Of a DNA stretch of 64,000 bases, positions 25,288-64,000 are shown in pieces (within the stretch, counting starts at the first letter, position 1; every line of letters begins with the position of its first letter). A program made the position numbers and the translations under genes. The notes beneath the pieces were generated by a model. That model did not search any database. It worked only from the letters and a program-made list of their open reading frames with translations, and was not told the DNA's origin. Source of the stretch: Cyanophora paradoxa CCMP329 (Eukaryota > Plantae > Glaucophyta); NCBI GenBank assembly GCA_004431415.1, contig QPMI01000017.1:682001-746000 (forward strand), in the 5' to 3' direction.

Positions 25288-26683
25288 CGCCCACGGCTTG
25301 GCGCAGCTGGCCTTGGTGCTGAGGACACGCGTATGTCACATCTGGACTCCGACGTGCGCCCTGCCCCGGGCCCGGCGCCGGCGCGCGCTGCGCTTGCCCT
25401 CGCGCGCGGCCATTGAGTCGAACTCCGCGCGCCTGCTCCGGTCACGCGCTCAGATCTTCATGCTGAACGAGGATGGCTCCCTCACGGACGGTAATCGCGT
25501 ACCCCCGCCAGCGCCCCGGCCCCCCGGCCTGGACGCATGATCACGCGCCGCCGCAGAGGCGCTGGCGGCGCTCGGGGCGGACGGGGCCATCGAGCTTGAG
25601 GACGGGAGTGTCATCTTCGCCGAGGCGCGCGGCTTGTACCCCCGATCGCCGACCGCCCTGACGTTTGAACCCCCCCTCAGAACGGTGAGCTGCACCGCGT
25701 GCACGTGGACGCGGAGGTGCAGGCGGCGGACGAGGGGTACACGAGCTACAGCGCGGTGCGCGGGCGGGGAACGGGGATCCGTCAATGTTCGAGTCGCGGG
25801 CTGTAGGAGGGATACAGCGGGGCGGAGGAGACGCAGGCGGCCGAGGCGGAGTCTGCGGAGTCTGCGGAGGGGTACGCGTTCGAAGCGCATTCGGACGGCG
25901 GCCTAGCCTACGCGGTGCGCCCCCCCCCTCCTCCCCCCCCCTTCCCCACCCCCCCCCTCCCTCCCCCCACCCTCCCCCGCCCTTTCTTCCGGCTCGGCGC
26001 CGGCGTGGCCGACCTGTACAGCCCCCCCTCCCCCAGGACGGAGACCTGGCGGGCCTGTGCCACGCGGGCCACGAGCCGGCGGCCCTCTGCTGAGAGCCCC
26101 GCGCCCCATCCGAGCTCCGAGGCTCCGGGGCGGCGCCCGTGCCTGCGCTGCTAAACGTAGCTGCAGGTCTTAAGCGGCTGCCCCTGTCGCACTCAGAGCC
26201 CCGGGCGCCCCGCGCCCCGCGCTGGCAGCATCGTGTTCTATGTGGACAGGTCCGGATCCTGTGATTGCTCTCTTAAGCTTACAGCTTCCGTCGCCAAGTT
26301 CTCTCTCTGGTGGAGGTGGCCCTGCTGCCGTGATCATGAGCATTAAAATTTTAGCCACATTCGTGTTCGTCGTTGCCTCGCATGGTGTCGTCGCAAGTAG
26401 ACTGCGCATGAGACTATAGCTAGTGCTGCAGCTGAAGCCCGCGGCAAGCTTGAGACGGCATGCTCAAGACAAACACCATGCATATGCATATGCATGGGCC
26501 TCACAAGAAAGTGGCTGGTGCACTGGGCACGCATGCGCATGCGGCATGCATTTGCACCTTGGCATTGCGGCATGTAGCCGGCGCAAGATCTAGCCTCTGT
26601 AAGATCCAGCCATGGCCACTAATATAAGATGGGGGCGAGGAAGGGGGGAGCGAATGGCGGCGAGGGGAGCTCGAGGGGGCGGG

Positions 26684-35717: not shown

Positions 35718-37840
35718 AGTGAGAGCTCAGCGGCTCGAGGATGAGCTGAGCCGGGTCTAGATCTAGATCATCGCGATCGGCAGCACTTCGATCGCGATCG
35801 ACGTCTCTACAATCTATAGGCTATACTGTAGAACTAGTTAATTTAGTACAGGAAAATAATTAGTACTTTGCCAAAACTGCCACTTTGCAGCTGGTAAATC
35901 TTTAGTAGGTCGGTCTTCGCAGCCTCGCATGCGCAGGGCTTTTAATTTGTATGGCGGAGCCAGGACTACCCATGCAAATTCTCGGCTTATAAGCAGGCGG
36001 GAAACATTTTTTTGGTGGATTTAGTAAATCGCCCAAAGACTTTTAGTACTATAAATATGCAGCCCACTAAATATTTCTAGTTTAACAGTAGCTGGCCTAG
36101 CCTAGTAGATATCGTCGTATCGATCATTCGAATTCGCGGCGATCGCGGGTCGCGACTCGCGAATCTCGCGATCGGCGGCGAATATTATATATAGTACTAG
36201 TAATGTACTAGTATGATGGCGATCGGATCTAGCCTAGAGCCTATAGGCCCCATTCATGATCATGATGCGGCATTGATGCCTGCAGCTGCATGCAATTTGA
36301 TGCAAATGATCAAGTTCCGAGTTCGTAAATCTTCATGATCATTTGCGTCCGACGCCGTGACGGTCCGGTACGTCCGGACTCAGGATCGGACGTGACGCCG
36401 TGAATCGCGTGACGTGGATTCGCGTCCGAGCCGGCGCCGGGCCGCCGGGGCCCCCGCGCCGGGCCGGTCCAAGGACCGAGGTCGATTCGAAATTCAATTG
36501 CACCACACTGTGACAGTGACCACACACGTACGGTACGCGCGGCGGTACGAGCAGCACGGTCAGAGCGAGCTGCCAGCCTGGCAGCTGCACGCCGTGACGG
36601 TCTGCACGGTACTGCACCAAGCTGCTGCACCACAGTGTGACCACACACCTACGCGGCGGTACGCCGGGTACGCGGGCGGCGGCGGACCGTACGCCGGGCC
36701 TCGCCGGCGCCGAGCTCAAGTCGACGCCGACGTCGACTCGGCCCGGCCGCGGGCGGGTCGACGGTCAGCGGCCCGTCACTGACTCGACCGGGTCAGGCCT
36801 GGCCGGCCCGGCCCGCGGCCGGCGGGGTGACGCGCCGGGGTCAGCATTGACTCAGCAATGATCAGCCGGGTCAGGCCTGGCCGGGCCAGCAATGACTTAG
36901 TAGTGCACGTGACTCAGCATTAGAATTCGCATTCGCGAATTGAATTGCATTGCATATATACTAGTACTGTACATGCAGCATGCGCAGCATCATGCATATG
37001 GCATATGCAAATATTATGCATACATCCATGTAACGTACAGTTACGTACTACGTAGCCGCTGACTCGGCGGCGTCGGCGCTGATCATGAGCCCGGGGCCGG
37101 CGAGCCTGCCAGCCACTGGGCCAGTGCCAGGCTGCAGCTGTGCAGCCGCGCGCGGCGGCCGGGCCGCGCTGGCTCCGCGGCGGGCGCCGCCGGCCTAGGC
37201 TAGGCTAGGCTAGGCCGGGCCTAGACCAACTTCGTCAATTCTAGATCAAAATAGATCTGACCAACTTGGCAAGGCGGAACTTCGGAAGCTAGCCCGGCGG
37301 CCCTAGTAGGCTAGTAGTAGTAGTAGCCTAGTATACTAGTAGTACTAGTAGTAGGCCTCAGTGGCCGCCTCACCGGTACCGTGGCACTTGTACAAGTACA
37401 GCGTGGCAGTAGCTATCATATATCATAGTATACTGATAGTACTATCATAGTATCTTAGCTATAGTACGGAGTCTACGTATACGGTACGGGTGCTACAGTG
37501 CTACTGGGCTCAGGCTGCTGCTGCAGACTGCGCATGCGGCATGCAGACTCAGTGACTGCGCAGAACTATATAGCTAGGCGCATATGCATGCGGTATGCCG
37601 CAGTGCACGTGCATGAACGCGTACGTGCATGAACGTTTAACGCAACCGTATGCGGCGCCGGCTGCAACTGTAGATATTCTACGTATATATGCGTACTACG
37701 GTATACGCATAAGCACGCTATATACGTATATACGTATATATATACGTACACACGTATATATTGCGTAGATAGCCTAAGTAGCGCGAACTTCGCAATCGCT
37801 ATACATGCACATAGCTAGCTCTAGCGATTGCAACGCGCCA
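35590..37840. repeat. Non-coding low-complexity region saturated with overlapping short palindromes, plus (TA)n and poly-C
   Basis: Examples: TCTAGATCTAGATC, AGTACTAGT, TCATGATCATGA, CATATGCA, TACGTATATACGTA. A poly-C run lies at about 35687-35717. Confidence 0.85.
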
Positions 37841-37842
37841 AA

Positions 37843-40800
37843 ATGATCAGAGGCGCGTATACGTATGCATGCAGGAGTGCTTCTCGCTCGAGCTCAGCGC
37901 CATGCATATGGCCATGGCCAGCTGCAGCTATTGTCTTCGGGCTCTGGTTAATAGCGATTGCGCCGGCGGCTCCGGCCGCTAGAGCGCAGGTCGTGATCTT
38001 GCCAACATCTAGCACTGTCTGCGCTGTTGGAGCGCCCTGCAGCGTGGCATGGAGCTCCGGAGACGGCTACAGTTATGCCAGCATTTGCCGCCAACCCGAA
38101 GGGGGTCGCGACCAACTTTGCTTCACCAAATCAAGCAGCGCGCCCTGGGGGGCAGAAGGACTGGCTCGTTTTACACTTCTCAGTAATGAATACTGGTATT
38201 TATGCAATGCCAAACGCGCTATTGCCATTGGAACCGGTGGGAGGTGCGTATGGGGCGCGCGGGGCGATCTAGATCTTCGGGTCCAGCTTATAATTAATGT
38301 TGGAGGCGATCCGCCATTCGCATACAGATGCACGGGGTACTTCATCATCTCATATTTCTGGAAGGACCCTTCAATTTCTTTATTACAAATCTCTCACACG
38401 GTCCGCTCTGTAGAATTTGAAGGCGGTACGTATACGCTACTAGTACTTGATCTACTTGACGTGTCAAGGTTCTCGTGATCAAATACATGCGCAGCTGAAG
38501 TAGCGATCGAGTCAAGCTCAGCATCCGCACGCGCGTGCACCGCACATGTGCCTTGCAGATTGAGCTGGAGCACCTCGTGGCCTCGCACGTCTAACAGAAC
38601 ATCGTGGTCAGTGAGTTTTAGGATATGCAGCATGAACGCCACACAATCAGCCGTATCCTGGTCGTTTGTGTGGGGTGAGGGTTGTTCTTCGGTGCATAGT
38701 TTTGTGCATCAACAGGACTCAAGCGCTGCGTCAACGTCCGCGGAAATCAGCATTTATATACCATACTTTGCCTTTCGAGTCGGTTGTGAATTCAACGATG
38801 AATTTTGGTATGCAATAACCTTGCGCGGATCATTATATTTAATTAAAATATGTACACATTCTGGCAGGTGCGATGCGTTCATAATTGTCGCCATCGACGA
38901 CGCGTTCATGGCAAAGCGTGCCATTACGATTGTTGCGAGCCCTATTCTTGTGAATAATTGGCACGACTGGTCGTCGGATAAATGCACAGCCTCAAGATCT
39001 CGATTCTTACAAGCTTTGGATGGATATGCACGCTCTGAGAACGAGGGAAGGGGGTGTGGAGTCTACTGGACTGCCCAAGTCGAAATATACCTTCAAATTA
39101 GGCTCGAACTTCCGCCAGTAGACGTTTACATATGCCCTTCTCCATCGTACTCCAGTTCTTCCTGTATCAATGTGCGGAGCGATTTTCGCACATTTATTCG
39201 CATCGCGATCGAGTTCCAGTTCTCACGTGCACGTCTAATTATAAATCTACACGCAGATTTTCATCTCGACAACAGCGAACAGCGCAACATTCTACCCATT
39301 TTTAGAGGATGTAAAGAAGATTTGTGGGTAAGAGCGTACGACAGACAATTGTTTTGATTATCATTTGCCATTCGTGTATATATATTTATATATTGCATGT
39401 TCTATCGATTCGAATTCTCGAATTCGAACTCCGGATCCAGTCTTATTGCTCTGATTTTCGGTTCTGCTACAGGGAAACGCTCAAATGCAATGCGTCCTGG
39501 GTTATTCGGCCTGCGCATGCCAGATGGGCTGAGAGCGATATGTCGACGTCTATCGACGGGACGCGTCCTGTTCTGTTAATGTACACCGGAGTGGCAATCT
39601 CAGAGAGCACAGCGTCGTCGTGTGCGACCTCGGCTCCCAAATGTTCAATATCCTGGTCGTGGTTTGCCACCGGATCCATCTTTTCAAATGGAGCCGGCCG
39701 CGTGCACATATGCAAGAATGTGCATGCCTATATAAACGAGAGGGGTTGGCCAAGTTCTTTGTCTGTAGCTGGAATTCTTCAATCAGGGTCCTGTGTGAAG
39801 GTAACTTCCCAAGACCGCTTGTAATGTTAATAATCATGATCATGCATATGATCATGATCATGAGTAGATCGGTTCTTCTGAAAAGTCGTCAATGGACGCC
39901 GTGATAACTGACAGCATTATCGCCCAAGTCTGCGGGTGCGCACAAGACTGCGCTGTCTGCTCCACTGCGCAGTACTAGTGGGCTTGTTCAATTTACGGGG
40001 CTGTCGTAGGGACCACATCACCACATGCGATGCGATGTGGATCCTGAACGGAGACGATTTCAAGAGTCTGAGGCTTGTGGGAGATAAAATTACAATAGCA
40101 AAAGCCTCGACGGCTTGCTGGAGCCCGCATGGAGCCGTCACCGAAACCTGCTTCCTGTCATGGATAGGAGGGCTGTTACCGATTGAAATCTATGTCTGCA
40201 AAGAAAATAGTTTTGTCAGAGATTCGTGCATGGTGGTAAGTTATTCTTGGTATGCGCACGCTTCGAGCTACGAGCTGTAATTTGCACTGATGAGCCTATA
40301 TATATCCCAACCTACGACAGATTGAAAGAAATTATTCTTCACCTGCACGCAGTTTCACTTACCAACCTGCGAGAGATGTAGTTTCTCGCATTTGCGGGTA
40401 TGTAGGTTTTCAAAAAAAAGTGCACGTATACAAAATATATCTCTCATTAATGATTCCATCTCAAAGTGCAGAAAAGTTTCTTTGCAGCGCATTCTGGGTG
40501 GTACGACCAGCGGGGCAGACAAACACTAATAATACATTGGATGAATCGAGCCCGCTAGCTTTGCACCTTGCTTACACCGAAATCCTGCCTTCCACATCTT
40601 CTCGCTGCTCTTCCACGTCGGGAGTATCCTGCAGAATTCTCTGGTCAGGAGCCTTTTCGAAATACGACATTTACTTCTGCAAAGAACAATCGTTTTCATC
40701 TGCGTCCTGCGTCACTCTTGCGTCCTCGATTTCAACAGCGTCTTTCGAACCGAAGAATCTCTGGGATCTGTACGTTACCCAAGGAACTGTCTATCGATTG

Positions 40801-43379
40801 TGCGGGTGCACTATTTGCGAAGGTGACTTATTTTGCAATTGCGCACATGACATGTCATGTTTTCGAAGGGAGGGGGATATCTCGTGCTCTGGTTTCTGGT
40901 TCATTCGCCCGAACGGTCAGCCCGAGTCGAATCACTTTTCCGAGGCCTCTCGCTATCTTGCGCTACGATCCGACGAGATTGTACTTTCTCCATCCTCGAG
41001 CTCCGCGGGCTATTCGAGCTCGACGTGCTCCACTGGAAGTCGACGGTGTTCGATCTCTTGGACTGGACTTCCTTACCCCTCTTTTGCAATCTACATATGC
41101 GGTTGGCAACTACGATCCCATCCGTTCGACACTAGCTCAAAACTATCGTTCTGTAGTGTGGTAGGCCCTTGCATATGCATATTTGCGCCTTCGCGTTCAG
41201 GTAGCAGATCGTGATATTGCATGCGTTCAGGTAGCAGATCGCGTAACGCGGCAGAATGCTTCGTTTACAATCGAAATTGCTGCAGTTGTAAAAGCCTGCG
41301 GGTGAGTATCTGATATCGATATTTATATTGAATGTTGATTAATTCGGTTTCATGACAATGAACCAAATGGCAGAACCGGATTAGTCGGCTGCAACGCCTA
41401 CATTGTCGTCGAGGCTCAATCACGACTTCCTACAATAAAGAACGCAAGGAATGCTTTGCAATCCACCGCCGCATACGCACTTCAGAGAATTGCAATTGCA
41501 ATCGATGTGCTTCCCATTAAAATAGAGGCGTTCTCGTGCACTTCGCAGCTGTCTCCAATAAACTGCACTGTCGATTGGCTCGTCGACCCCAAGCATATTC
41601 TGAGCGAGCCCGTCGTAGCTAAGCTTGCCGCATCCACAAACATCGATCTGGCATTGTGCCCCATGGCCAACTTGACCGAGCTCGAGCTCGAGCCTACAAT
41701 GATATTGATGGCTCGTCAATGCCGAAACCTGCGGACATATACCTCAAATTCGGTGCGTCTCAAAATTCAATGCAAGTCCAGATTAACATGCAACTGACAA
41801 TACGGCGAATAATCACCATGCGACAACATATTTATCTAGCTTGCACTTGAGCTTGCGAACGTCCACTCTGAGAAATTTGCGCTCGATGACATCGACACCG
41901 ACATACGTACATGCAATCGCGAAAAGTAAAACTTGACTTCTATGTTTTTAAAACTTGGTTTTAGTGGGTATAAACTGCGTTTCCGCAGTCCTTGCAAGCA
42001 TTTGGCCATGCTTTTCTCGAAAAACGTTCAAACGCAAGTCGAGGAAGTTGTAATTCTGGATGTAACCATTTTCAAACCTACGATCGCGATCAATACCAAT
42101 GCTTCTTCATCGAGCTGCTGGGATAGTTGCATCGTCACCTGGAGCAGGGAAGCCAACGTCAACATATTTTTGTGTCCGTTCGCCAAACTCCTCGCCGACT
42201 CTTGTGTTGAGGTGAGCAAAAAGCATGAATGCGATCATGTTTATTGAGGTGCTTTAATATCTGAGAAACGTTTCGCATTCACGTTCAGATTGGCTCAAAC
42301 ATACAGGGGACATCATTCAAATTCGCACTCAAGGAGAGCCAGTACGACGCACTCTGCAGGTACGCATGCGTTCCACGGTTTCATTCCTATCTAACACTAT
42401 TACCTCTTCGGTTTCATTAATATTCTTCTTCTGTCTAACACTATACGACCGCAGATTTAGAGAATCTGCGTATTCGTATGTGAATTGCTCGGCTTTTGTT
42501 GTTGTGCAACCACTGCCTGAGTTCAAGGATGACTTCAGCATGACTCCAGTTGAACTGAGAGGTCCTCCTCGGTCGCAGCTGCAGCCGTCAAATTTTGCAA
42601 CGGGATTTTATTCACAGCTGCAGGAGGAGCGTCTTCTGAAACTTAAATCATCGCTCGCCATAGTCCTCCCTATTCTAATTTCTGGAGTTGTTTCATTGTG
42701 GATAGCACGAAGATGCAGCAGCTTCGATAGAGCGAACTCAATGCAGGAAAACGTGCGACGACTCAGTGCGGGCCACGCGTTACTCTTCCTCGCACAAGCC
42801 CTCTTCATGGCTCTGGCTGCGGGCCTTCCAATGTGGACTGGAGCTGGGGCGAACGAGCCCTCCTCCCCGTTTAGAATGGATCTGCTGCGTGTACATACTC
42901 CAGGGGGGAGCAAAACGTTAATCGAGATCTGCGATGAGGTGACATCGTCTCGTTATCAAGACAGAATCCCAGAATGCGAACTTGCGTGGACCTTTTTCGC
43001 CGCATTTGTGACCGAAATAGCTGGATTTGTCATTTCGTTGATCGGCGTCGCAAGCAATATTCGTTCGTATTTGAACCAGTCAATCCATCCTTCGCACATG
43101 CCCTCTATACTTGCTCTGCACGTTACGTGCGTCTTTCAATCTACAGCGGTTCTAGTCCTTGTTCTTGTCGCTTCGGGTAGATACGTCGGGATACCCCTGC
43201 TCATTTCAGCCCCTCTGGGCCCGTGTGTCGGCCTGCAGCTAGCCGCAATTACCACAGCTACTGCCGGCTGTTATGGCAGCATGCGCGCTCTGCATCTCCG
43301 TGGAGCGATTTTCGCGGCGCCGCCTCTTGGAGACAGTCGTCCGTCTGCTCCCGTCTTCCCGGTCCGTGATTTCATCTAG
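37843..43379 (+). CDS. Predicted surface receptor: signal peptide, about 9 Cys/Ser-rich extracellular repeats, a TM helix and a claudin/PMP22-like C-terminal multi-TM module (spliced, lower GC than its neighbours)
   Basis: Signal-like IVFGLWLIAIAPAAPAARA-Q. Repeats of the form xI..S...C....C.(I/L/V).W...(D/E)IY.C...SC ... C.(G/A)FW.(I/V)RP. ORF 42366-43379 has LAIVLPILISGVVSLWI, then ALFMALAAGLPMW...C...C...FVTEIAGFVISLIG and further TM segments. Confidence 0.55.
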
Positions 43380-43707
43380 ATCTTGAATCGCGATATTTGA
43401 AAAGCACCGCAAGCCCCATCCCTTTCTGCAAATTTGTGATCATGACGCCCACGTGTTCGATTCTGCAGACGCAGGCGGCAACGCATGGCATGCGCACGAT
43501 AGATCCGGAGATCGCAGGTTTAGGGGGCAATTACAAGTACCAATCTCCCAGCTCTAGCTAAAACCTCCTATGTCCCACATATTAAAACGCTTCCTGAATT
43601 TCGAATGGCAAAGTAGCTGAAAGTGTATATCGTAAACACATTGAAGAAATACATAAATTGAGTCCAATACCCAATCAATAATTTCGGTGTTCACCCCCTT
43701 GAGCTTC

Positions 43708-50421: not shown

Positions 50422-50839
50422 ACTCAGATTTCGTCCAACTTGCAATCACGTTGGGCGATATTCGAATCCCTTCGTCTCGCCCATGAGCAGCGGCATGCGC
50501 AGCCCGCGCCTGCAATCCGCTGCATATTTCCGAGTCTCGAGTTCTGTTGACGTTGCTGCCAGCTTGGCAGCGCTGATCATGATCATGATCCATATGCAAA
50601 TCCTTCGATTCGAGCTTAGAAAGTTTCAAACTACTTCTGTATAGAATTTCGCCAGATTCTGAGCTTGAGACATCTGCAGCTGCTTTCCCATGCCTATCAA
50701 AAAGTAAAGGCTGCCAGCCGCTGTGCAGCTGCAGTTAAATATGCACATTTGTACATGTACATGTGTAATCTCGCTGATCGTGATCATAAAATCAAACCTC
50801 TCGTGATCGTGATCGTGTAATCTCGCTGATCGTGATGGG

Positions 50840-51125: not shown

Positions 51126-51898
51126 CGCCTACCGAGCACGCGCCGCTGCCCGCAGCCGAGCACGCTGCCCGGCACTCGTGCTTGAGCTTGCACCGCAAAA
51201 CCGCTTGCGCCGCTAGCTGCCTAGCTGTGCCGCTGCCCGCAGCCGAGCACGCGTGACCGAGCCGAGGGGTGACCACTGTGACCACCTAAAATCAAGCTTA
51301 AGCTTAAGCTGCCCGCAGCCGAGCACGCGTGACTGATTATACATTTCGATACCACTGTGACCACCTAAAATCAAGCTTAAGCCTATGCATCTGCCTCTGC
51401 CTCTGCCTCTGGCTCCTCATGGCCATGGTCATGATCATGATGGGACCCGGTCTCGGACTCTGATTCCGGGGCCAAGAAGGCCTCGCAAATCGGAAGCCGC
51501 AGGCTCCTGTGCGTTACACTCGACGGTCAGCGATTCAGCAGCGCGCGCGTCGGAGGCGTGGCGACTAGACCTAAGGGACAAGGGACGAACCGGAGGAGTG
51601 CTATCGAGGGATCGTGGATCAAGTCCATGTCGGGGGGCAGATCGACGGCCATGCGAACCTCTTCGCAGAACGTCGAGGTCGCAAGGAAGAGCTGACCCGG
51701 ATTCGAAGTCAGTGATTACGGGAAGGTTGAGAATTAAAGAGGAGACTGCGATATCGCAGCGCCGGCTCGCCTTGTGAGCGGCGGCAGAGGCCGCGGCTTT
51801 CTCCGCCTCGCCGCCGGATGACCGCGCCAGAGCGGCGGAGATGCTCAAAATCCTTCCCGCGATGTAGGAAGCGGCCATGTCGCGGAGCGTCGGATAGA

Positions 51899-52192
51899 AC
51901 ACATAGAGAAACGCGGCGTTTAAACCCTCGGCTTATCTTAATTGATCTTGTTTATATCTCTCGTATATTTTATATCAATCAATCGATAATCTGTGTGAAA
52001 TCTATCGAATTATTTAAATATTTTGATTTTTGTGTATTTCATTTATAATTTATTGATGTTCTATGGTAAATTTATCTTAATTTCGATTTGTCTTACTCGA
52101 ATCAATCGTGAATTTGTATAAGTTTCCGAATAATATAACTGGATCTTAATTAGATCTTGCCTCCGGTTTAAACGCCGCGTTTCTCTATGTGT
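51899..52192. repeat. 294-bp terminal inverted repeat forming an incompletely paired AT-rich hairpin
   Basis: Perfect 28-bp arms: ACACATAGAGAAACGCGGCGTTTAAACC (51899-51926) and its reverse complement (52165-52192). The interior pairs in many 3-6 bp helices separated by bulges. Confidence 0.9.
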
Positions 52193-52310
52193 GATTTTAA
52201 CGCAATAAACGCGATTAATATGCAAATTTGATATAATCACGATTGACGGAACATAAATTTGTGATATAATCACGATTGAAGTAGTCCACCTCCCATTCTA
52301 TCGTAAAACG

Positions 52311-52690
52311 CAAAAATTCACACAGAGTTGCATTACGTCCAATTAAACAATCGATGAGATTGCGGGAAACAAAAATGACCCCATAGTTGCATTACGTCCA
52401 ATTAAATAATCGATGAGATTGCGGGAAACAAAAATGACCCCAGAGTTGCATTATGTCCAATTAAACAATCGATGAGATTGCGATTCGATTTTTACTGTAT
52501 CAAAAATGACCCCAGAGTTGCATTACGTCCAATTAAACAATCGATAAGATTCCTGTTAAATTTCTACTGTATCAAAAATGACCCAGAGTTGCATTATGTC
52601 CAATTAAACAATCGATAAGATTGGATTCTGTTTTTTACTGTATCAAAATTGTGTTTCAAGTGTAACATGTCCAATTAAACAGTCGATAAT
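52311..52690 (+). repeat. Subterminal iteron-like tandem repeats (5 full copies and 1 partial)
   Basis: Core CAAAAATGACCCCAGAGTTGCATTAYGTCCAATTAAACAATCGATRAGATT starts at 52311, 52370, 52429, 52501, 52573 and (partial) 52644. Periods are 59, 59, 72, 72 and 71 bp. Confidence 0.9.
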
Positions 52691-52695
52691 CAATG

Positions 52696-52972
52696 TGTAA
52701 CAGGTGAATCCCAAGGTGTAACGGGTGTAACAGGTAAATCCCAAAGTTTTGGATTTTTCATCTCCTATGAGGAAAGTTTGGGAAACACCTGTTACACCTG
52801 TTACATGACACTATAATCAATGTAAGGAATCGAATATATTAATGCTTTGTTTGATAGATGTAACAGGTGAATCCCAAGGTGTAACAGGTGTAACAGGTAA
52901 ATCCCAAAGTTTTGGGTTTTTGGCCTCCCTAGGAGCGAAGTTTGGGATTTACCTGTTACACCTGTTACACCT
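52696..52972. promoter_or_regulatory. Two copies of a palindromic TGTAACA(GG)/(CC)TGTTACA array, candidate replication origin
   Basis: Copy 1 spans 52696-52805 and copy 2 spans 52859-52972. Copy 2 has a perfect 32-bp stem (52877-52908 with 52941-52972) and a 32-nt loop. Confidence 0.55.
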
Positions 52973-53020
52973 GACGATATTCAATAAGACATGTTATATT
53001 TCTTCAAAATCTCAGTGTGA

Positions 53021-53418
53021 TTAACTCGGAAATCGCGCTGCTATCTGCTTCTCCGCTTTCTCCAACCCTGAAAAGATCTCTGTTATTCTCTCATCTATCA
53101 ATTTAGATATTACGGAGGTCTTACTTTGCGCTTCGGTTCCGCAAGTGAATACATCAATCGCTAACATTCCTTGGTCAGAGTAACAATGAGCGGTGCAATG
53201 GCTCTCATCAAGAAGTAATACCATCGCAAAACCCGGTGGCGAAACACCACCATCGAAAATCTCGCAATGCTTGTGAACAACTCGGATACCTTGCTCTTGT
53301 ATAATAGATTGTAAAAATTGCATTAACCACGTTGTTGTGGTCTCCAAGTTTCCAATCCCACCATCAATGGATGATTGAACTTGTAATCTAACATTACATG
53401 GGAACCGCGATGATTCAT
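53021..53418 (-). CDS. speD: S-adenosylmethionine decarboxylase proenzyme, short prokaryotic/viral type (1-bp frameshift near 53381)
   Basis: VLLLDESHCTAHCYSDQGMLAIDVFTCG contains the autocleavage E-S motif. The N-terminus MNHRGSHVMLDY lies in an adjacent frame, and the span is 398 bp (one short of a codon multiple). Confidence 0.88.
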
Positions 53419-53458
53419 TTATGAATTATATAGAAAAATAAAAAACGAAATTGGTAGG

Positions 53459-53608
53459 ATGCGAACCATCTTAGCGAAAGTATTTCCGTATGAGTTGGTC
53501 GATATCATAATGCTCCATTATCATAAGACATGTCCGAATTGCTTTGATACTTGCATAATAACCAAAGGTAAATGCGGAAAGATGCTCATTTCTCTTTCGA
53601 AACTCTAA
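53459..53608 (+). CDS. Small hypothetical 49-aa protein with a CxxC motif
   Basis: MRTILAKVFPYELVDIIMLHYHKTCPNCFDTC...KL* fills the gap between two genes. Confidence 0.35.
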   Translation: MRTILAKVFPYELVDIIMLHYHKTCPNCFDTCIITKGKCGKMLISLSKL

Positions 53609-53877
53609 TCAAAATATAACATAATCGGTTTCTCTTCTATTACGATTCCCCATGTAGTCTTTTTTCTGTATGCATGAGAGTGTTTCTTAGAACACTGTCT
53701 ACATCCTGACCCCTTTATATGGTTAAATCCATAAGTCTGAAAGACTTTATTACATTGCAGGCATCTCACAGATACCTTCTCTTGCGCCTTTTTATAGACA
53801 GTTTCGGTGTAATCAAACTTATCAAGTCCATGAACCATTATCGCAGACTCAATAAATCTCCTTGTTTTTTCATCCAT
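53605..53877 (-). CDS. DUF723-like zinc-ribbon protein
   Basis: FIESAIMVHGLDKFDYTETVYKKAQEKVSVRCLQCNKVFQTYGFNHIKGSGCRQC matches the F..KA..VHG.KYDY...C..H..F....NH..G.GC..C repeat common in large DNA viruses and phages. Confidence 0.75.
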   Translation of the reverse strand: MDEKTRRFIESAIMVHGLDKFDYTETVYKKAQEKVSVRCLQCNKVFQTYGFNHIKGSGCRQCSKKHSHAYRKKTTWGIVIEEKPIMLYFD

Positions 53878-53898
53878 TCCTCTATATATACCGTAGAT

Positions 53899-54743
53899 TT
53901 ATGGTAGCGGATCGCTACCGCCGATGGGATTATAGAGATTTGTGGTTAGATATTGACCATAGCGGTTTCCTCTTGCGATTGCATCGTTTCTTTCGGCATA
54001 CATAATAACCGTGAATGTTCCTTGTTGTGTTGCCCTAATTATATATTCATCATCTTGCGTATCCAAAAGAGGCAATGAATGGAAAGCAAGACCAAAATTA
54101 TCGACGGGGACTACTTGAACTGTAATACGTGGTCTTGCTCCATCGGTTCTCCTACATAATGCATAAATATCCGCAGGTAGCTTTTCGGTATATCTGTAAT
54201 GGTTTCCCAGCGGTTCTATTATGTCAATTACGGCAGTTTGCAGGTTTATTATAATCGTGTTTATTTTAATAATGTAAGGTTCATTCATACCCGGGCAATA
54301 CGTTCTAATTCTCGTGTTTTCATCATCAGGATTGGGTTGGTCATTTACGATTAGAGGCGCTCCAATGATACCACCAACTCTTAGTCCGTCCCAATATAAG
54401 CGCCTCCGGATCTACATTTAATTGCGCCCCTTCTTGCTTCGTAAGCAAAGTTGGTAACCTTATTATCATCATTGTAACTGTCGGGATCTCCATAATGAGC
54501 GTTGAAGTTCGCATTTGTTACAAGAAGTCTCGTTGTTTTCACCACTCCACTGTTGGTGTCACATCGCAACTCTCTCAGTCTCAGCATATGAGTATCACCG
54601 AAGGTATTGAGAGTTGGTGCGATTTCTGTGGATTCGAGACCATCGATATTATCGATAATAGCATGCTGTAATACGTGGTTTGCGGGCGCAGCTAACGATA
54701 GTTGCGCAGTTAAGATGCGTTCAGGTGGTGCAGGTGCAGCCAT
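53899..54743 (-). CDS. Fibre-associated protein A, about 281 aa (ORFs 54381-54743 and 53899-54288 joined across a 1-bp indel at 54390-54392)
   Basis: Adding one G gives ...SGGAYIGDGLRVGGIIGAP...PNPDDENTRIRTYCPGMNEPY... The C-terminus LPADIYAL...VQVVPV...FTVIMYAERND resembles the C-terminal module of fibre proteins. Paralog of 54763-55607. Confidence 0.6.
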
Positions 54744-54762
54744 TTAATATATCGAAACATAA

Positions 54763-55607
54763 TTATGGGACGGGATCTTCGGGGTATGGTTCATTATAGA
54801 AATTCGATAGTTGAGCATCGGGATTTATGCAGTTAGCAACAGCCCATGCCGCCTCATCATTACGATATCCATAAATCATAATATCATAACCTCCAACCTC
54901 AGATGCCCAAAAATCAAAAGTGTTGGGTTGTGTTGCAGGATTTCTTATAACCCATCCACGCCCTCCATGACCTACCGCTTGAACAATGAATGTATATCCT
55001 TCTACACCTCCATTCTGAGAGCGACACATGGAGTAAATCGCTTTCGGTAAAAGTTGATCAGCCATTTTCCAAGGTCCGTCAATACCTTGGGTTGGGTAGC
55101 ATCATTTATATTTACATTTGCTCGTATGATAGCAAAAGCATATGGGGAATCTCCACATGGAAGAAACATACGCATTCGTTGGGGATTATCTGCATGTTCA
55201 GGTAAGGTGTCCGGAATATCGTTAAACGCAGCAGAAGAGCCAAGCATTCCGGATACTCGGCATCCACCACCAATAACAGCGCCTCCTGATCGGATAACGG
55301 CGGCGGCTCGCGTATTGTCGAATTGGAATGCTTTGATATCTACACCATACGCATCGGGTTCTCCGTTTGCTGATTGAAAATTCGCATTTGTAACCAATAA
55401 TTGAGTTGTTTTTACCACACCCGAATTCTTATCGGCTCGTAGTTCTTTTACGCGAATCACACTGTTTCTATCGAATGCATTACCTGAGTTAGCGCGTTCT
55501 GTCGATTCCATACCACGAATCTCATCGGACACTTCATGTTGTCTGAAATGAATTGCGGGCGCACCCAATGCGTAAACCGGTAATTGCACACGATTGTATT
55601 CACCCAT
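54763..55607 (-). CDS. Fibre-associated protein B, about 281 aa (ORFs 55002-55607 and 54763-55065 joined across a 1-bp indel near 55090)
   Basis: Shares ELRxDxNSGVVKTTxLLVTNANF, RSGGAxIG, LPxxIYxxCR, (I/M)YxxRND and NxYN...DPxP* with protein A. Confidence 0.6.
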
Positions 55608-55656
55608 TGCTTCTTTTACTAAGAAGATAAGAAAAATAAAGCGATCTGTGAGTTAA

Positions 55657-58600
55657 TTATGGTATACCATGACATGTCCAATGGATAGTGCATGTGATAC
55701 TTCGACTTTCAGATAGAGTAGGGGATGCTATGAATGTCACATAGATTGTTGTGTAGTTAGCTGTGGAGTTTGAGATTCCAATTCTAAAATCTACATCCCC
55801 TGGGTTTGTTGCAGGAGTTCCTTGAAGTGTGGCATTTACAACAGGTGTCTGAGTGTAAAAAGGTGGGTCCCAATATAAAACATATGCATGCTGTGTTGTT
55901 TGACCCGCGCTTATAACACCACTTGTGGCTTGATATTTTCCTGATTTGAAACGTCTTTCTATATCATACCAAGATGGAACTTGGCTGATTGTGTTTGTGG
56001 TTCCTGCATTCATCGCATAAAATGCTCTTGCATAAGCATTTCCACGACAGAGCAGTGTTTTATCATAAAAGTTTGCGGAATTGTGGAAGAACCATGTTTC
56101 TTGGTTTGTGGGTGATGCAGGAGTTACTATTGAACCCGATCCTACATACATAGTATTATTTGCTGTGATCGTATTGGCTGTGAATGGATCAAAAGAAGGC
56201 AAATCTGAGATTTCTGATTTAGTGTGAGTATGGGCAAAATCTGTAATATTTGCCTTTGTGTGAGTATGTGCAAAATCTGTGATATCTGCTTTGCTGTGTG
56301 AGTGAGGACCGACAGATGTTGAAGCTGTTGGTTTTCCGAAGATATTATCCCAATGACAGTAACCACTGTGTGAAGTTACAGCAGGGTTTTTGCTCCATCC
56401 AACAGCAATTGGACCGGGTAAATAAATTCTTCCTTTCTGTCCATGAACACCAACTTTGGTTAGTCCTTCACAATTTATTCCAACATACTGTTTGAATTCC
56501 TTTGATGGGTCGATTGCAGTAGAATAGGCATTTACTCGTAAATATGTATACACAGTTGTTGGAGGATAAATTCCCACCACATCAAAGTATCTACAATTGT
56601 AATGACAAGCATAATAGATATAACAAGATTTCATTCCTGTTGGGACATTCCAATACATTTTACAGCTACTACAATCTTCATCAGAAGCAGCCCATGTGTT
56701 CGCCCAAGTATTTGTGTCCCCTGTCAATATTCCTCCGTTGTAATTTCTCCAATCACATGTGCGATCTGTGGAAATAATACTTGTAGCGTCAAAATTTGTG
56801 GGCGCTGTGTATGTTGGCTTGTTAATTAAATCATCATAATTTCCGGTTGTCGCAACAGTTGCAAATGTTGGTTTGTCTGTAATATCATTCCATAAATGAG
56901 TGTGAGCTGTTGCCGGAAATGTTAATGGTTTTTCTGTTATACTACTCCAAGGGTGTGTATGAGCATCGGGCGGAAACAGCAAAGGTTTATTTGTAATACC
57001 TATCCAATCATGAGTATGAGCAGCAGGTGCAAATGTTAATGGTTTGTCTGTGATGTCCGCCCATAAATGAGAGTGAGCAGCAGGAGCAAATGTTAACGGT
57101 TTGTCTGTGATGTCCGCCCATAAATGAGTGTGGGCAAAATCAGTAATTTGAGACTTTGTGTGAGTGTGAGTAGTAGGAGTGAACGCTAACGGTTTGTCTG
57201 TGATGTCCGCCCATAAATGATTGTGGGCGAAGTCTGTTATTTGAGACTTTGTGTGAGTGTGAGCATCAGGAGCAAAGGTTAATGGTTTACCTGTAATGGT
57301 TGTCCATGCATGAGAATGAGCATCAGGAGCAAAGGTTAATGGTTTATCGGTGATGTCGTTCCATAAATGAGAATGGGCAGCAGGAGCAAAGGTTAACGGT
57401 TTGTCTGTGATGTCATTCCATAAATGAGAATGGGAAAAGTCTGATATTTGGTCTTTTGTGTGAGTATGAACATCAGGAGCAAACGTTAACGGTTTGTCTG
57501 TGATATTTGACCACGCAGGTGTGTGGTTCTGTATCCAACCTTGAACCACATTTGATGTGGTATAGTTTGGAATGCTTGCATTTGAAGAAACGATTAAATT
57601 TCTAATATGAACATTTTCAGCAGAAATGCGTAGATTATCAGGAATAACGATTGTTTGCTTTTTTGGAAAGCCAAAATAATCTTGCATATAATATCTCACT
57701 TTTGCCTTTCATCAAATGTCAATGCTCTGTTGAATATAATATATTCCCTACTGCCGTAATGAAATAGGCAACACCCATCCTACTAAAAGTGGAAGGTGGA
57801 AGATAATCCACTTCTGTAATGACTGTGCCTAAATCTTGTCCGTTAAATCCGAAAGTGCAGACATTTGAAGAAACTGTAAAGTCCCAATGATTCGGCGACA
57901 ACTCAGAATACGATGTGGGATAATTTAAGTGTGCTGCTGGGTAAGTCACACCATTGCTTGTATAAGAATGTATACCCATACTGCTACCTGTTGTCCCAAA
58001 GGATACTTTATTAGTTCCATCTGGTGAACTAAAATTTAAGAGATCTACCCACGGTTCCCAAAATCTATAAGAACCTGCAAAGAAGATGGTGATACCTTTT
58101 GACCAATCCACAGTTACGGGATACGGCATTCCAAATTCCCGGCTTGTATATGAATAAGTAGGTTGTTGGGCAATGTTTCGGTTATTGTAATCAGATCTCA
58201 ATTGAGTTATTGTGTTGTATCCTGACCATGGGAAGGTTACCCCGGAAATAAAGGGAATTGCCGTAGTTGCTCTATTTGCAATAAAGGCGTGACTGATGTT
58301 TATGCCGACAGGGACAACATCTAATCTTATTGTTAAGAGGCAATCTGGTATGGCAAAAGCGGGGTCTGTATTAGAAGTAACAGGATAATAGGGTGCGTCA
58401 TAGTATACATCAATGTTTGTATTTTTGTCTCCAATTTGAATTTTTCCTATAACATTCAAGTTGGATGAAATCGTAAGATTTGAGGAAATTGTTCCTCCTG
58501 TGAGAGGCAAGTAATCATGAGTGTGCGCAGAAGGGGCAAACGTTGATGGTTTGTCTGTGATGTCATTCCATAAATGAGTGTGGGCAAAGTCTGTTATCTC

Positions 58601-61600
58601 TGACTTTGTATGAGAATGGGCGAAATCTGTAATTTGTGACTTTGTGTGAGTGTGCGCAGAAGGAGTAAACGTGAGCGGTTTGTCTGTGAGATCTGCCCAT
58701 AAATGGGTGTGTGCAAAATCTGTAATCTCTGACTTTGTGTGAGAATGGGCGAAATCTGTAATTTGAGACTTTGTGTGAGTGTGCGCAGAAGGAGTAAACG
58801 TGAGCGGTTTGTCTGTGAGATCTGCCCATAAATGGGTGTGTGCAAAATCTGTAATCTCTGACTTCGTATGAGAATGGGCAAAATCTGTTATTTGAGACTT
58901 TGTGTGAGTGTGGTGATCTATCCATTCTTGAACCACATTTGAAGCTGTTAATGGAGCAATCCACTCCTGAACCACATTTGAAGCTGTAAATGGAGCAATC
59001 CACTCCTGAACCACATTCGATGCTGTTAATGGAGCAATCCATTCCTGAACCACATTTGAAGTGGTATAGTTTGGAATGATAGCATTTGAACCAACGTGTA
59101 AGTTGTTTAGATAGAGATAGTTTGCTGATATTCGCATATTATCAGGATAGTAAAGAGGTTGAGTTATAGGAAAGCCATACAGCTGTTGAATATAAAACCT
59201 TACCTGTTGCTTTTCAATCTCAGACAAGGCCCTGTTGAAAACAATAAGTTCGGCAGTCTCCCCCCATGCATGCCTTGATCCTATATTATTAAATGTTGAT
59301 GGTGGAAGCCAGTTACCAGCAAGAGTTCCTAAATGCTTTCCATTCATTGAATACGATATGCTATTTGAAGTCACAGTGGTGTCCCAGTATGCACATTTCC
59401 AATTCGTATATTCTTCAAAAGGCATATGCACAGTCGGGAGATTACTATATGTTGGCTGACCGTATTGCATGTTTATTCCAGCTGCTGCATTAATATATCT
59501 ACTCATGCCCCATTTACAGACAGGTGGTGACACAAACCAATCTATATGCGTTCCAAACACACATTCATGCACTCCATAGTTAGCGATATTAAGCACCCCG
59601 TTGGTGTAGTTTTGTGACCTCACACTTCCCACAAAGAAGAATGTTAATCCAGCACTCCAATCAACAGTATTTACTCTATTTGTTGCCAAATCAACAGTTT
59701 GACTACCATAGTTTAAGGTGAGTTGATTGTTTAGTAAAGGATTTATTTTATAGTATGATGTGTATGGTGAATTTCCACCCAGAGAAAATGATGGGATAAA
59801 TGGAACAGCCAATGTTGCTCGGTTAACAATAGTAGTCCCACCTGCATTTTGTAGATGGGCGTAGCCAGATGGTTTTGCAGCTATCAAACAGTTCGGAATT
59901 GTAAATGCAGGGTCAGTGTTGGATGTAATTGGATAATAGGGTGTGTCATAAGTCACATCTAAAACCGTCCCATGAGTTCCTAATTCAATGTTGCTTGACA
60001 CTTTGAGATTACCGGAAATGGTAAGATTACTTGACAGTGTCCCGCCTGTGAGAGGTAAGTAATCTGATAACCATTCTTGAACTACATTCGATGCTGTTAA
60101 TGGCGCAATCCATTCTTGAACCACATTAGAAGAAGTATAATCACTCTCTATGGTAGTTATTCTCGTTGCAAGTGCGGCATCCTCAGTTTGGAGTGCTGTA
60201 ATTGCCTCTTGTTGTGTATAAATACTCTCTTCCAAGCTATTTGTTTTTTCTTGAAGGCTCATAGTCGATACTGTGCCTGAGGTTGATGTAGTCATAATAA
60301 CGTTCGTCGCCAAGAGGGTGCCGGTTACTTTAAACTCATTAGTTCTAACAAGAATCTTGTTGTTATCCAATGGATATGGATTTAAAGGGTCTTCCGGAAA
60401 ACCGTATTTTTGCTGTAAATACCATCTAATATTTTGTAGTTCTGTATCTGAAAGGGTTCTACCATAACAAAGGAGTTCGCATAAATCGAATTTTGAAACG
60501 CTATCACCCACATGTATTTTATTGACATCTTGGCGTGGATATCTTGAATCGGCAGGAACAGATATTGTATCTCTATGTTTTCCATTTACACCAAAATGAA
60601 CAGTTGTGCTTGTTACTCGAATATCGAACATTGTCCAAGAATTCCCTTCTGTTGTTGATATTGGAATGCTCACTAAATCGTAGCCATTCTTATTGACATT
60701 CAAATACCCGCTTGTTTTAGTAATCAACCAACTGAGATTGTTTCCATTCACATGTGTTGAGCCGTCGATTCGTAAAACTGTTTCATTTGGAACGCTTGGT
60801 TTAAATCGAATGACAAATGAGACCGTAATTCCGCTGAAAGGAATAGTATCATAAAGAGTAGAAGTTTGATATTGATAATTGATGAATGAAAATGTGTTTG
60901 TGGTAGCCACCTGGTAGAACTTTTTACTATTTGGACCGAGGAAGCTGAAAGTAACACTGCCGTAACTAACAAGAGTGTTAACTACATTAATATAATTCCA
61001 AACTGAGCCGCCCCTTGCGTAATTTTTGAGTTCATAAACAAGCGCTCCACTCTTCCAATTATCAGAGTTTGCGTTAAAGTGAAGTAGGCAATCTGCTATT
61101 TCCCTTGGATTATATGTAGAGAAATCTTGGGATCCTCTCTCGAACTGATTTCCACTTAGGTGTATCTCTTTACCTACACTCAATGTATCATTGACTGTCA
61201 GATAACCTGTTATGGTTCCACCTGTGAGGGAAGGTAGTTACCTAACCAAGATTGGACAGTTGAAACTGCCGCCAAAGGAAGCAAAGCCGTAGCTAATTCG
61301 GTTCCATCTATGTAATTCTTGTTTTCTAAATAATCCTCTGTGACCACTCGTGATATTGTTTCGTTGTGTATGTTTTTTGCTGCTGCTCTCTGATTGATTT
61401 CCAAGACCCCTTGCTTATCAACATCATTATAATTGGTTTTAATCCACCCTATCTCACATTGCTTATAATCGTCTCGATCTCCAATTAAATCATCAGGTAA
61501 GAGCCGATCTCGACTAAATATTAACTTTGGTCTTGATCCATCAAGAGCGCTTACATCAGTAACGTTAATTTGGATTGCTGCATCTTTGTCTACAAAATTA

Positions 61601-63285
61601 ATTGGATCGGCTGGAAGAGATGGGATAGGTGGTAATGTAACTGTCATCGGGATGTCATCTGGGTAGTAACTTGTTAGATAGATGCCCGGTTTATTCTGCA
61701 TTACTCCAATACCTCCACCTGCTGCAACTAAATTAACTCGTGTAGGTGGTCTGATATATAATTCGCCTTCCATTGTGGTGCCTGCATTTATTCCATGGCG
61801 ATTGACGTAATACGCATCTAACATTAATCTTTCCTCTGTGTCTATATTCTTATAGAGACTCACACCATGTAGCCCATCATTCACAGCATCACCTGCTGAT
61901 GCGAACGTAGGTTGCTGATCGATTTCGTCCCAATTGTGTCTATGTGGTGCTGGTGGAAACTCTTCTGGTGCATCGATTTCGTCCCAAGTGTGTCGATGAT
62001 CTGCTGGTGGGAATTCTTCGGGTATTCTGTCAATATCCTCCCAATCGTGTCTATGATCCACAGGTGGAAATCTATCAGGTTTGTTTTCGATCTCGTCCCA
62101 ATCATGACCATGGGGATCAGGTGGATATGTTTGTGGTTTATTTCGGATGTCCTCCCAATCAACTATAAAATCGAAGAGATCAGGTGCAAATCCATCAGGT
62201 AAAAGCTGTTCGTCATATGGTTCGTAGCGATCGTATGTTATAAGGTTCGGATCGAAACCATCAGGTAACTCATTATCTTCTTCAAATCTTCGATCTTCAA
62301 GAGGTATAACATTCACATCTGGCGCAAGAAGCTCTTCTGTTGGTGGTTGATAAACTGTAAATACTGGTTTGTTTCGGACCTTCTCCCAACTCACGATATG
62401 TTGACCAAAGGCAACGTTCTCTTCTGCTGTGTATTCCCTTCCTGGCTGTTTTTTTGGTGTGAGATCCGGTGGATCCCATGGAAGCGGAAACGGAACAGGG
62501 GTAGGTCCGTAATGCTCAATGATTTCTCTTATTGTTTTCTCACTAACAAGTTTCTCACCGTTTGCATACACATTGCTACCGTGAATATTTCGCCATTGTC
62601 GGGTTCTAATACCAAGGTCTTTGGTGTTTGTCTTCAAAGGTAAATGGTGGCGATCCATTTCGACAAGGTCGGGGTGTAAATGAATGGCTACTGGTTGACT
62701 GGGGCTACTGTCGACCGTGATAGAGTCTTTCTCTTTGGAAGTATCCTGTGGAAGAGTGAAACCAAAAAGTGCGTTAGTTTCTGCATTGTCGACGATGTCC
62801 TTCGGATAAATACTGTTGGTGTGGCGAATCTGATTCTCTTCACCATGTGGGGCTACCTGTAATATCTGAGGGATTTGTGTTATCGCGTTTGATCCTTCAT
62901 TATAAATTCTCAAACCGCTACGATGAACTCCCTTCTCATCCTGGACATTGAATACCAAACGTCCGCTATCGAATCGTGTGGGAATATCGGGATGCGTTCC
63001 ACTGGTTTTAAGTTTCCGTGGTCTCCTTCGAGTTGCCTTGATCTCTGCAACCGCGTTTTTTTTAACATTGCCCAAACTGAAAGCAATGCTAACATCTTCT
63101 TTATCGGGATCGGTTTGGTTCACCGATAAAGCGTGAACCCGGGGATGAGTTTTCGATGGTTTATCGGCGCTCTGATCGATAGAAGCCGACCCTTTGATGG
63201 TGATGTTATCAAAGTTCACATGTTTAGGATTCGTTTTACCACCACCTGATACTGTCTGTAAATTTGCTGGATAATTGAAACTCAT
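55657..63285 (-). CDS. Giant virion fibre/adhesin, about 2540 aa, after repair of three 1-bp homopolymer indels (61228-61230, 57746-57748, 57700-57703)
   Basis: Repairs give YLPLTGGTITGYLTV and VGEYIIFNRALTFDERQKVRYYMQDYFGFP, both matching intact internal paralogous segments. The protein has phage-fibre-like HxH repeats (HTHTKSQITDFA; HxHLWADITDKPLTFAP), three LamG/ConA-like domains (EL..(F/Y).R.LS..E...(I/V)R.Y....YGFP) and a C-terminal gp53/H-lectin-like domain (F..TPVVNAT). Confidence 0.75.
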
Positions 63286-63333
63286 CCTGCTTGCTCTACT
63301 TATACAGATTTATTAAATTTAAGATAAGTAAAG

Positions 63334-64000
63334 ATGCCCCTAAAAGTTGTTCTTAGTTTATCTGGCGGAGGCGCTCGTGGAATCATCATAACAAGGTTGC
63401 TAAAAGAGATCGAAACAAGAACCGGTAAACGCGTTATAGATTTGGTCGATCTCGTAAGTGGAACATCCACAGGCGGTATTATTGCTATCGGTCTCAATGT
63501 GAAAAATCCCGAATTTCCCAATGAACCTAAACTAACTGCGACCGACCTTCACGATACTTACCTCTATCATCTCCCATTGATCTTTGCGAATCCGCGAAAT
63601 ATCATCTCAAATGCACTTTTTAATACTAAATATGATGTATCACCATTAGAAACCGCTATTTTCTCTGTGACTGGGGAAGCTCTCATAAAAGATTCACTAA
63701 AAGACGTGGTTATTACGACATTCGACACAGTGAGTATGAAACCCATTTTTATAGCAAACGATAACGATTACAAGACCATACCAAGTAAGATTGCGGCGCG
63801 ATCCACCTCGGCTGCTCCGACATATTTTGCTCCTGTCGATTACGACGGGATGTGTCTAATTGATGGCGCAATATCAGGTAACAATAACCCAAGCGTTTGT
63901 GGTTACAGTCACGCGAAAAAGATATATGATAACGATGACGATATTATAGTTATTAGCATCTCGTGCGGTGAAGTAAATGAAACGGACGCATCAAACGTCG
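63334..64000 (+). CDS. Patatin-like phospholipase (3' end outside the window; absent from the ORF track)
   Basis: MPLKVVLSLSGGGARG, catalytic SGTSTGG, STSAAPTYF and LIDGA..NNP. Confidence 0.92.
   Translation, partial: MPLKVVLSLSGGGARGIIITRLLKEIETRTGKRVIDLVDLVSGTSTGGIIAIGLNVKNPEFPNEPKLTATDLHDTYLYHLPLIFANPRNIISNALFNTKYDVSPLETAIFSVTGEALIKDSLKDVVITTFDTVSMKPIFIANDNDYKTIPSKIAARSTSAAPTYFAPVDYDGMCLIDGAISGNNNPSVCGYSHAKKIYDNDDDIIVISISCGEVNETDASNV

Follow-up and report, generated by a model that had tools for sequence, protein, structure and literature searches.

What has inserted itself in the nuclear DNA of the glaucophyte Cyanophora paradoxa CCMP329 at the point where, within contig QPMI01000017.1 (assembly GCA_004431415.1), GC-rich host DNA abruptly gives way to AT-rich DNA? 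The window considered here is the whole analysed stretch of 64,000 nucleotides (positions 682,001 to 746,000 of the contig, forward strand); it consists of host DNA up to position 51898 and of a block of 12,102 bases that extends from 51899 to the window end. The block is an inserted double-stranded DNA (dsDNA) virus or virus-like genome, a conclusion drawn because of a sharp junction with the host, terminal repeats, densely packed intronless genes and a foreign base composition. As to its class, we favour, with a probability of roughly 60%, the left end of an endogenous element of the polinton-like virus (PLV) type. The genes visible in the window would then mainly constitute an attachment and entry module, and those for capsid and replication would follow past position 64000.

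The junction is marked by a pronounced step in base composition. The GC content amounts to 64.3% in the host part (1-51898), where it peaks at 77.5% in 2-kb stretches, and to 40.0% in the block (51899-64000); between two adjoining 200-base windows it falls from 61.5% (51700-51899) to 27.0% (51900-52099). A preliminary description of the locus had pointed out an AT-rich, intronless and gene-dense block of 12 kb directly abutting intron-rich host DNA, and the measured values agree with it, as about 98% of 53021-63999 is coding and all seven genes are readable without splicing, whereas the host exons are short. For the host genome, the C. paradoxa PacBio assembly paper gives 67.6% GC, 9.2 introns per gene and a mean intron length of 86 bp. 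Neither blastn nor tblastn detected similarity of the block to other parts of the window, the further islands of intermediate GC content included. The scarcity of host-type palindromes in the block, likewise remarked upon earlier, is also reflected in the counts. Perfect 12-bp palindromes occur 63 times in the host part versus 19.0 expected (maximum 27 in 30 simulations) and twice in the block versus 3.2 expected, and exact 18-mers of the form s-rc(s)-s number six and zero, respectively. On the host side, a 155-aa open reading frame (ORF) on the reverse strand (51435-51902) reaches 3 bases past the junction; it may represent a host exon interrupted by the insertion.

The first 1.1 kb of the block (51899-53020) is non-coding and built of inverted and tandem repeats. 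Its outermost component is a unit of 294 bp bounded by perfect inverted arms (Table 1), the left of which directly adjoins host DNA, so that the start of the arm and the start of the block share the coordinate 51899. The 28-nt arm has two matches in the window versus none in 100 shuffles. Pairing of the arms continues imperfectly to about 50 nt per arm and encloses a non-palindromic interior of 238 nt with a GC content of about 27%. Folded as single-stranded DNA, the unit reaches −45.7 kcal/mol (z −7.78), and none of 100 shuffles was as good. Inspection of the flanks of the unit for a target-site duplication revealed none. Further inwards follow a tandem array and a pair of longer direct repeats; each of these 163-bp repeats carries an inverted pair of 33-35 nt on GGTGTAACAGGT...AAATCCCAAAGTT (best pair 97%). 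In replication or integration, a part would fall to these repeats of the terminus.

The coding part of the block was originally represented by a list of ten ORFs, which a three-frame reading of the junctions and alignments of paralogues reduce to seven genes with six frame breaks. At every one of these breaks a homopolymer run is short by one base, and no nonsense codon is found otherwise, as the preliminary description had stated for the indel-repaired frames. Decay is expected to leave a mixture of substitutions and indels, an uncorrected long-read consensus uniform homopolymer deletions. Because the shortfalls are uniform and nonsense codons are lacking, the six breaks most likely stem from homopolymer errors of long reads that went uncorrected, and not from decay; the genes of the block, read in this manner from their sequence, are therefore probably intact. 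The assembly paper reports Illumina correction of the assembly, with zero-coverage areas left as PacBio sequence, a way in which errors of this sort could persist. The earlier view that the dsDNA virus is endogenous and hardly decayed, if at all, is supported by the error-like nature of the breaks together with the sharp junction, the terminal repeats and the dense intronless genes.

Expression signals of bacterial type are not evident in the block. A properly spaced Shine-Dalgarno motif was found by eye at none of the seven true starts (0/7), in line with the earlier observation. Neither sigma-70-like sites (40 versus 38.9 ± 6.4 in shuffles) nor terminator-like sites (4 versus 8.3 ± 3.4) are in excess, and scans with Rfam models and for tRNAs gave no match. 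Three genes end in the same way, on a proline-stop hexamer CCATAA followed by A/T-rich bases, namely the fibre gene (55657-55662), gene A (54763-54768) and gene B (53899-53904); the next gene begins 19-49 bases on. These gene ends may reflect a shared gene-end or promoter signal.

Table 1. Features of the viral block and of the host flank (positions of the 64,000-nt window)
Feature	Position	Strand	Remarks
Terminal 294-bp unit	51899..52192		perfect 28-nt inverted arms 51899-51926 / 52165-52192, 100% complementary
Tandem direct repeats, 5-6 copies of 59-72 bp each	52311..52690		common core ACGTCCAATTAAACAATCGAT
Two direct repeats about 163 bp apart, 93%	52695..52985		inverted pairs within
Class-1b (bacterial-type) S-adenosylmethionine decarboxylase (AdoMetDC) homologue	53021..53414	-	one frame break near N-terminus
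49-aa ORF	53459..53608	+	read from sequence
Treble-clef zinc-ribbon protein, 90 aa	53605..53877	-	DUF4379, phrog_4605
Orphan gene B, about 281 aa	53899..54743	-	listed as 120- and 129-aa ORFs, one frame break
Orphan gene A, about 281 aa	54763..55607	-	listed as 201- and 100-aa ORFs, one frame break
Fibre gene, about 2,525 aa	55657..63285	-	three listed ORFs (691, 1154 and 680 aa), three frame breaks
Patatin-like phospholipase, first 222 aa	63334..64000	+	divergent from fibre gene, cut by window end
DUF2053 membrane protein exon	15498-16409	+	host flank
Actin-related protein exon	19237-20327	+	host flank
Katanin-like AAA ATPase exon	26687-27658	-	host flank

The fibre protein is composed, from its N-terminus, of an orphan region, a series of repeated modules and a C-terminal segment of 200 aa. 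Every module combines a Laminin-G-like domain with SNVVQEW repeats and HxH phage-tail repeats, and the repetitive character of the protein is evident from a self-alignment of residues 661-1105 of the 1154-aa ORF with residues 1-498 of the 680-aa ORF (34%, E 3e-69). The HxH repeats recognized in the preliminary description amount to 30 motifs in the fibre ORFs; the coordination of metal ions is a property of such repeats in the fibres of phages. In Pfam searches YmaF scored above its cut-off (E 1.4e-7) and the phage-tail repeat PTR below it, while Laminin_G_3 aligned over nearly the whole profile with the first of three modules, the sole one with a hit, at E 2.3e-4 and 21.8 bits versus a cut-off of 27.6. 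Tail-protein PHROGs were matched with E values down to 1.1e-37, and the tail collar fibre gp4 (PDB 9d93) with E values of 3.3e-8 and 1.8e-8. The similarity to phages is confined to the repeats, which match tail proteins of actinobacteriophages, and covers at most 16% of the 691-aa ORF among 234 phage records. The first 345 residues are nearly orphan, since a full HMMER search yielded 15 weak matches, none at or below 1e-10 and all around residues 190-251, of which ten carry uninformative names. For the C-terminal 200 aa, the look-alike in the Atlas is an H_lectin cluster (score 0.91, 155 shared features), a lead only, and the segment is accordingly described here as a possible lectin tip.

The architecture of this fibre has a published counterpart. 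According to PMC12220804, PLV fibres are modular in build, reach lengths of up to 3.9k aa and contain Laminin_G_3 as well as phage-tail-repeat (PF12789) domains; the supplement of that paper has one C. paradoxa fibre entered as 'PTR PTR H_lectin', which is the same design as that of the C-terminal ORF of the fibre described here. The HxH tail fibres of phages (PTR PF12789; PDB 9d93) share the HxH repeat region, whereas the rest of the present fibre and its gene context are not phage-like. What had formerly been designated phage-type fibres is one modular gene composed of phage-tail repeats, Laminin-G-like modules and the possible lectin tip, with the fibre architecture published for PLVs. As to function, the fibre is predicted to form a trimer; it would attach to sugars of the host surface via the Laminin-G-like modules and the possible lectin tip, and its shaft would be stiffened by the HxH repeats.

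The phospholipase at the window end matches the Pfam family Patatin (PF01734) with E 4.9e-24 and 86 bits (cut-off 27.7), such that the name given to it before, like that of the AdoMetDC homologue, is retained. The GGGxRG, GTSTG and DG motifs fall into invariant columns of a 17-sequence alignment, the invariant residues being G11-G13, R15, G16, G43, S45, G47, D177 and G178. Higher scores are obtained with models of defence phospholipases, namely E 1.4e-40 with the PADLOC phospholipase effector PDLC00758 and E 1.8e-35 with NCBIfam CBASS_lipase, the latter at 122.7 bits, under the cut-off of 200, for a protein cut at the window end. In this respect the patatin resembles the CapV effectors of CBASS, but its score stays under the NCBIfam equivalog cut-off and no cyclase is visible in the window. 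The best relatives are 37-42% identical. Relatives with 31-39% identity are found in ordinary bacterial neighbourhoods (18 of 80 loci examined), and none of these 18 loci contains a CD-NTase or SMODS gene nearby (124 ORFs of at least 170 aa, E 1e-5). As the examined loci of the relatives, which serve as a proxy for the DNA downstream of the window, are devoid of a cyclase neighbour, an interpretation of the patatin as a CBASS component is disfavoured. An IMG/VR contig of 170 kb encodes a 37%-identical patatin and carries, in the stretch 1-20606, four ORFs with an amidoligase domain, an amidase and an HNH endonuclease, again with no cyclase; it looks like a large phage unrelated to the element here. 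In glaucophyte PLVs, patatin is reported in PMC12220804. The Ser-Asp dyad of the enzyme is intact, and once uptake has taken place the phospholipase would open the endosomal or the plasma membrane, a role that has been proposed for lipases of PLVs.

At the other end of the gene array, the AdoMetDC homologue exceeds the threshold of Pfam AdoMet_dc (E 2.5e-12, 47.5 bits, cut-off 25) and remains under the equivalog cut-off of TIGR03330 (49 versus 75.65 bits); it also matches phrog_3125 (E 7.9e-12), and its best phage matches, from three records, are 33-40% identical. The protein contains an E-S-H stretch at the position which we take to be the expected self-processing site. The AdoMetDC homologues of viruses and phages all belong to the bacterial class 1b and are encoded by many phages and by algal giant viruses, according to PMC9992855. 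Because some of these homologues have turned into arginine or ornithine decarboxylases (PMC9992855), we assign no specific substrate to the homologue here. A decarboxylase of the AdoMetDC type would raise the polyamine supply for replication or DNA packaging.

The remaining proteins of the block are small or orphan. For the zinc ribbon, an affinity to DUF723 had been proposed; the family matched is instead DUF4379, with E 1.6e-4 and 22.3 bits just under the cut-off of 24.5. Further matches are phrog_4605 (E 7.2e-11) and endonuclease-associated PHROGs (2.5e-9 and 5.1e-7), where the motif accompanies homing endonucleases; the zinc-ribbon protein itself has no nuclease domain. The 49-aa ORF matches no family of NCBIfam or PADLOC and may not be a real gene. 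Genes A and B are tandem paralogues with 50% identity in their front and 31% in their rear parts. Neither has a match in Pfam or PHROGs, nor gene B in NCBIfam and PADLOC. For the 201-aa ORF of gene A, a word-based search found no homologue among 205 candidates, the IMG/VR viral contigs contained no match and the Atlas no usable one, and the AlphaFold2 model was unusable (pLDDT 29.5). From their position beside the fibre gene, one might guess that the two paralogues are virion or fibre-associated proteins.

The assignment to PLVs is favoured because of the capsid-gene prior for this host, the PLV design of the fibre, the occurrence of patatin in glaucophyte PLVs, the GC contrast and the lack, in the literature consulted, of giant-virus reports for the host. 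With respect to the first argument, the supplement of PMC10120064 gives 366 for C. paradoxa in a survey of capsid genes, split 272 / 94. Such insertions are described in the same paper as generally 15-30 kb in size, often with a drop in GC content and in about 47% with terminal inverted repeats. The block shares with the endogenous PLVs of protists the properties of a low-GC, intronless and gene-dense insertion in a GC-rich host with a repeat-rich terminus, and an apparent fragmentation of genes from assembly errors. Likewise in common are a very long modular fibre with Laminin-G-like domains and phage-tail repeats, the possible H-type lectin tip and the patatin. Dense intronless genes and a GC content far from that of the host are membership features of an endogenous PLV; the modular fibre is a frequent but not a defining one, and all of its domain matches but YmaF lie below the curated cut-offs. 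On balance, we regard the block as probably a well-preserved and fairly ordinary case of a kind of element already catalogued in C. paradoxa.

Several points weigh against this assignment. It is founded on accessory genes and a genome prior, as the 12 kb contain no hallmark gene. A profile search for viral hallmark genes, suggested in the preliminary description, returned none among the visible ORFs of 51899-64000; specifically, a double jelly-roll capsid, penton, packaging ATPase, protease, integrase or polymerase was not found there, and 12 kb devoid of core genes correspond to a large share of a PLV of 14-40 kb. Compared with endogenous PLVs, the block thus differs in the visible part by its lack of genes for a capsid, ATPase, protease, integrase or polymerase, and furthermore in its AdoMetDC-type gene and in the 294-bp unit with perfect 28-nt inverted arms at its extreme end. 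No report linking AdoMetDC with polintons was found in the literature consulted, where the enzyme is documented in algal giant viruses and phages. Of the fibre domains, Laminin_G_3 and PTR score below their Pfam cut-offs, and H_lectin was recovered at the fibre tip neither by Pfam, even at E 10, nor in the PDB; the AlphaFold2 model of the tip was unusable (pLDDT 35.6). Relatives of the orphan genes are absent from the databases searched, which leaves no related genome for the classification. Only one end of the element is visible, so that any true terminal inverted repeat or target-site duplication is putative.

Two other kinds of virus have to be considered, both of them unlikely. According to the first, the block would mark the border of a giant endogenous viral element (Nucleocytoviricota) of tens to hundreds of kb, its terminus being the remnant of a hairpin-type genome end. 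This scenario would account for the 294-bp snap-back unit exactly at the junction and for 12 visible kb without a PLV core gene, and class-1b AdoMetDC is documented in Heterosigma akashiwo virus and in the Yellowstone Lake and Dishui Lake phycodnaviruses (PMC9992855). The preliminary description adds a recurrence of patatins and zinc-ribbon proteins in viruses of this kind. The likeness to the giant endogenous viral elements of algae consists in a viral insertion in an algal genome and a bacterial-type AdoMetDC. However, no visible ORF of the 12 kb matches the hallmark families of large capsid, A32, PolB, D5 primase-helicase or VLTF3, the fibre is of the architecture published for PLVs (PMC12220804), and the snap-back unit pairs well only over about 28-50 nt per arm, its interior being non-palindromic. 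Moreover, no report of giant-virus insertions in this host was found among those passages of the literature consulted that mention the host or its group. The former characterization as accessory genes of nucleocytoplasmic large DNA virus type is too specific, as AdoMetDC and patatin are of bacterial type and also occur in phages, and patatin also in glaucophyte PLVs.

The second scenario, which we rate as equally doubtful, places the block outside both PLVs and giant viruses, in an undescribed lineage of integrated viruses or virus-like mobile elements, for example one with another capsid type and a borrowed phage-style fibre. Near-orphan proteins point in this direction, in particular the 201-aa ORF without homologue and the first 345 aa of the fibre with their weak matches, as does the lack of close loci in IMG/VR, where the 201-aa ORF, the 1154-aa ORF, the patatin and the 27-nt arm, used as queries, retrieved either nothing or matches that were distant or limited to the repeats. 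Yet accessory genes of PLVs are commonly orphans, which as a general statement would also cover the genes seen here, and the known load of PLV-type capsid genes in the host makes a PLV the economical reading (PMC10120064, supplement). The poorly described lineage proposed before is consistent with the near-orphan proteins, but not with a host already catalogued with 366 PLV-type capsid-gene hits. A more elaborate version appears very improbable; here the provirus would be intact, still capable of moving and from an undescribed lineage, and would end in a snap-back (hairpin-forming) unit instead of a plain inverted repeat. It would unite a bacterial enzyme of polyamine metabolism, a phage-style fibre that binds metal and a CapV-like phospholipase, the latter possibly the opening gene of a CBASS-like abortive-infection module in a eukaryotic virus.

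It is also highly unlikely that the block represents phage or bacterial DNA misassembled onto a host contig, or a horizontally transferred phage fragment. Actinobacteriophage tail proteins match the fibre repeats, AdoMetDC and patatin are of bacterial type, the nearest patatin relatives at the loci examined reside in ordinary bacterial neighbourhoods, and the assembly paper reports bacterial contaminant contigs that needed removal. The argument is countered by the absence of Shine-Dalgarno motifs at all seven starts and of an excess of promoter- or terminator-like sites, by the restriction of phage similarity to the repeats, and by the structured terminus at the junction, as expected of an insertion. 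Apart from repeat-driven PHROG matches, the block contains no portal, terminase, capsid or tail-tube family, and PMC12220804 describes this fibre design in PLVs of eukaryotes. A relation to the mavirus-like endogenous virophages (EMALEs) of Cafeteria burkhardae, suggested by the GC contrast and sharing a low-GC virus genome in a high-GC host, intronless genes and, putatively, terminal inverted repeats, is rejected because of the different host and of EMALE size and gene content, since the 5.5-21.5 kb and 17-21 genes without giant fibre gene described in PMC8547959 would not accommodate the 7.6-kb fibre gene and the other visible genes.

The flank of the insertion is ordinary nuclear gene space of a eukaryote, as indicated by host exons of a DUF2053 protein, an actin-related protein and an AAA ATPase with lid domain, which are short, conserved and embedded in long spurious GC-rich ORFs. 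The AAA ATPase exon is 99% identical to EukProt tig00000093_g3637.t1 (runner-up match 73%), a protein named in the style of the C. paradoxa PacBio assembly, whose contigs appear in a published supplement as 'Cyanophora_paradoxa_isolate_CCMP329_tig...'. Among the host palindromes are triple tandems of 6-bp palindromic units, CTGCAG, GACGTC and ATGCAT for instance; examples of the palindromes are located at 24303-24323, 24742-24759, 26478-26495, 50575-50590 and 51295-51310. An island of about 47% GC at 37800-43400 in the host part contains long ORFs that repeat a cysteine- and tryptophan-containing motif. Pfam yields nothing for these ORFs, nor do they resemble the viral block; the island may represent a host gene of repetitive structure or an insertion of older date. 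With regard to dinucleotides, the observed/expected ratios in the block are 0.87 for CpG, 1.27 for TpG and 1.15 for CpA, compared to 1.13 for CpG in the host; this mild pattern could be due to coding bias or to some methylation-driven decay.

The window provides a base-exact host-virus junction, the architecture of the terminus and a complete entry module of fibre and phospholipase from a glaucophyte, a member of a group with few studied viruses. It further illustrates that homopolymer errors of long reads can make genes of such elements look like pseudogenes. Noteworthy details are the AdoMetDC-type gene, the CapV-like patatin at the window edge and the snap-back unit exactly at the junction; otherwise, the block is probably one further copy of a kind of element abundant in the C. 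paradoxa genome. Should the element turn out to be a PLV, its AdoMetDC-type gene would add PLVs to the viruses that encode polyamine metabolism.

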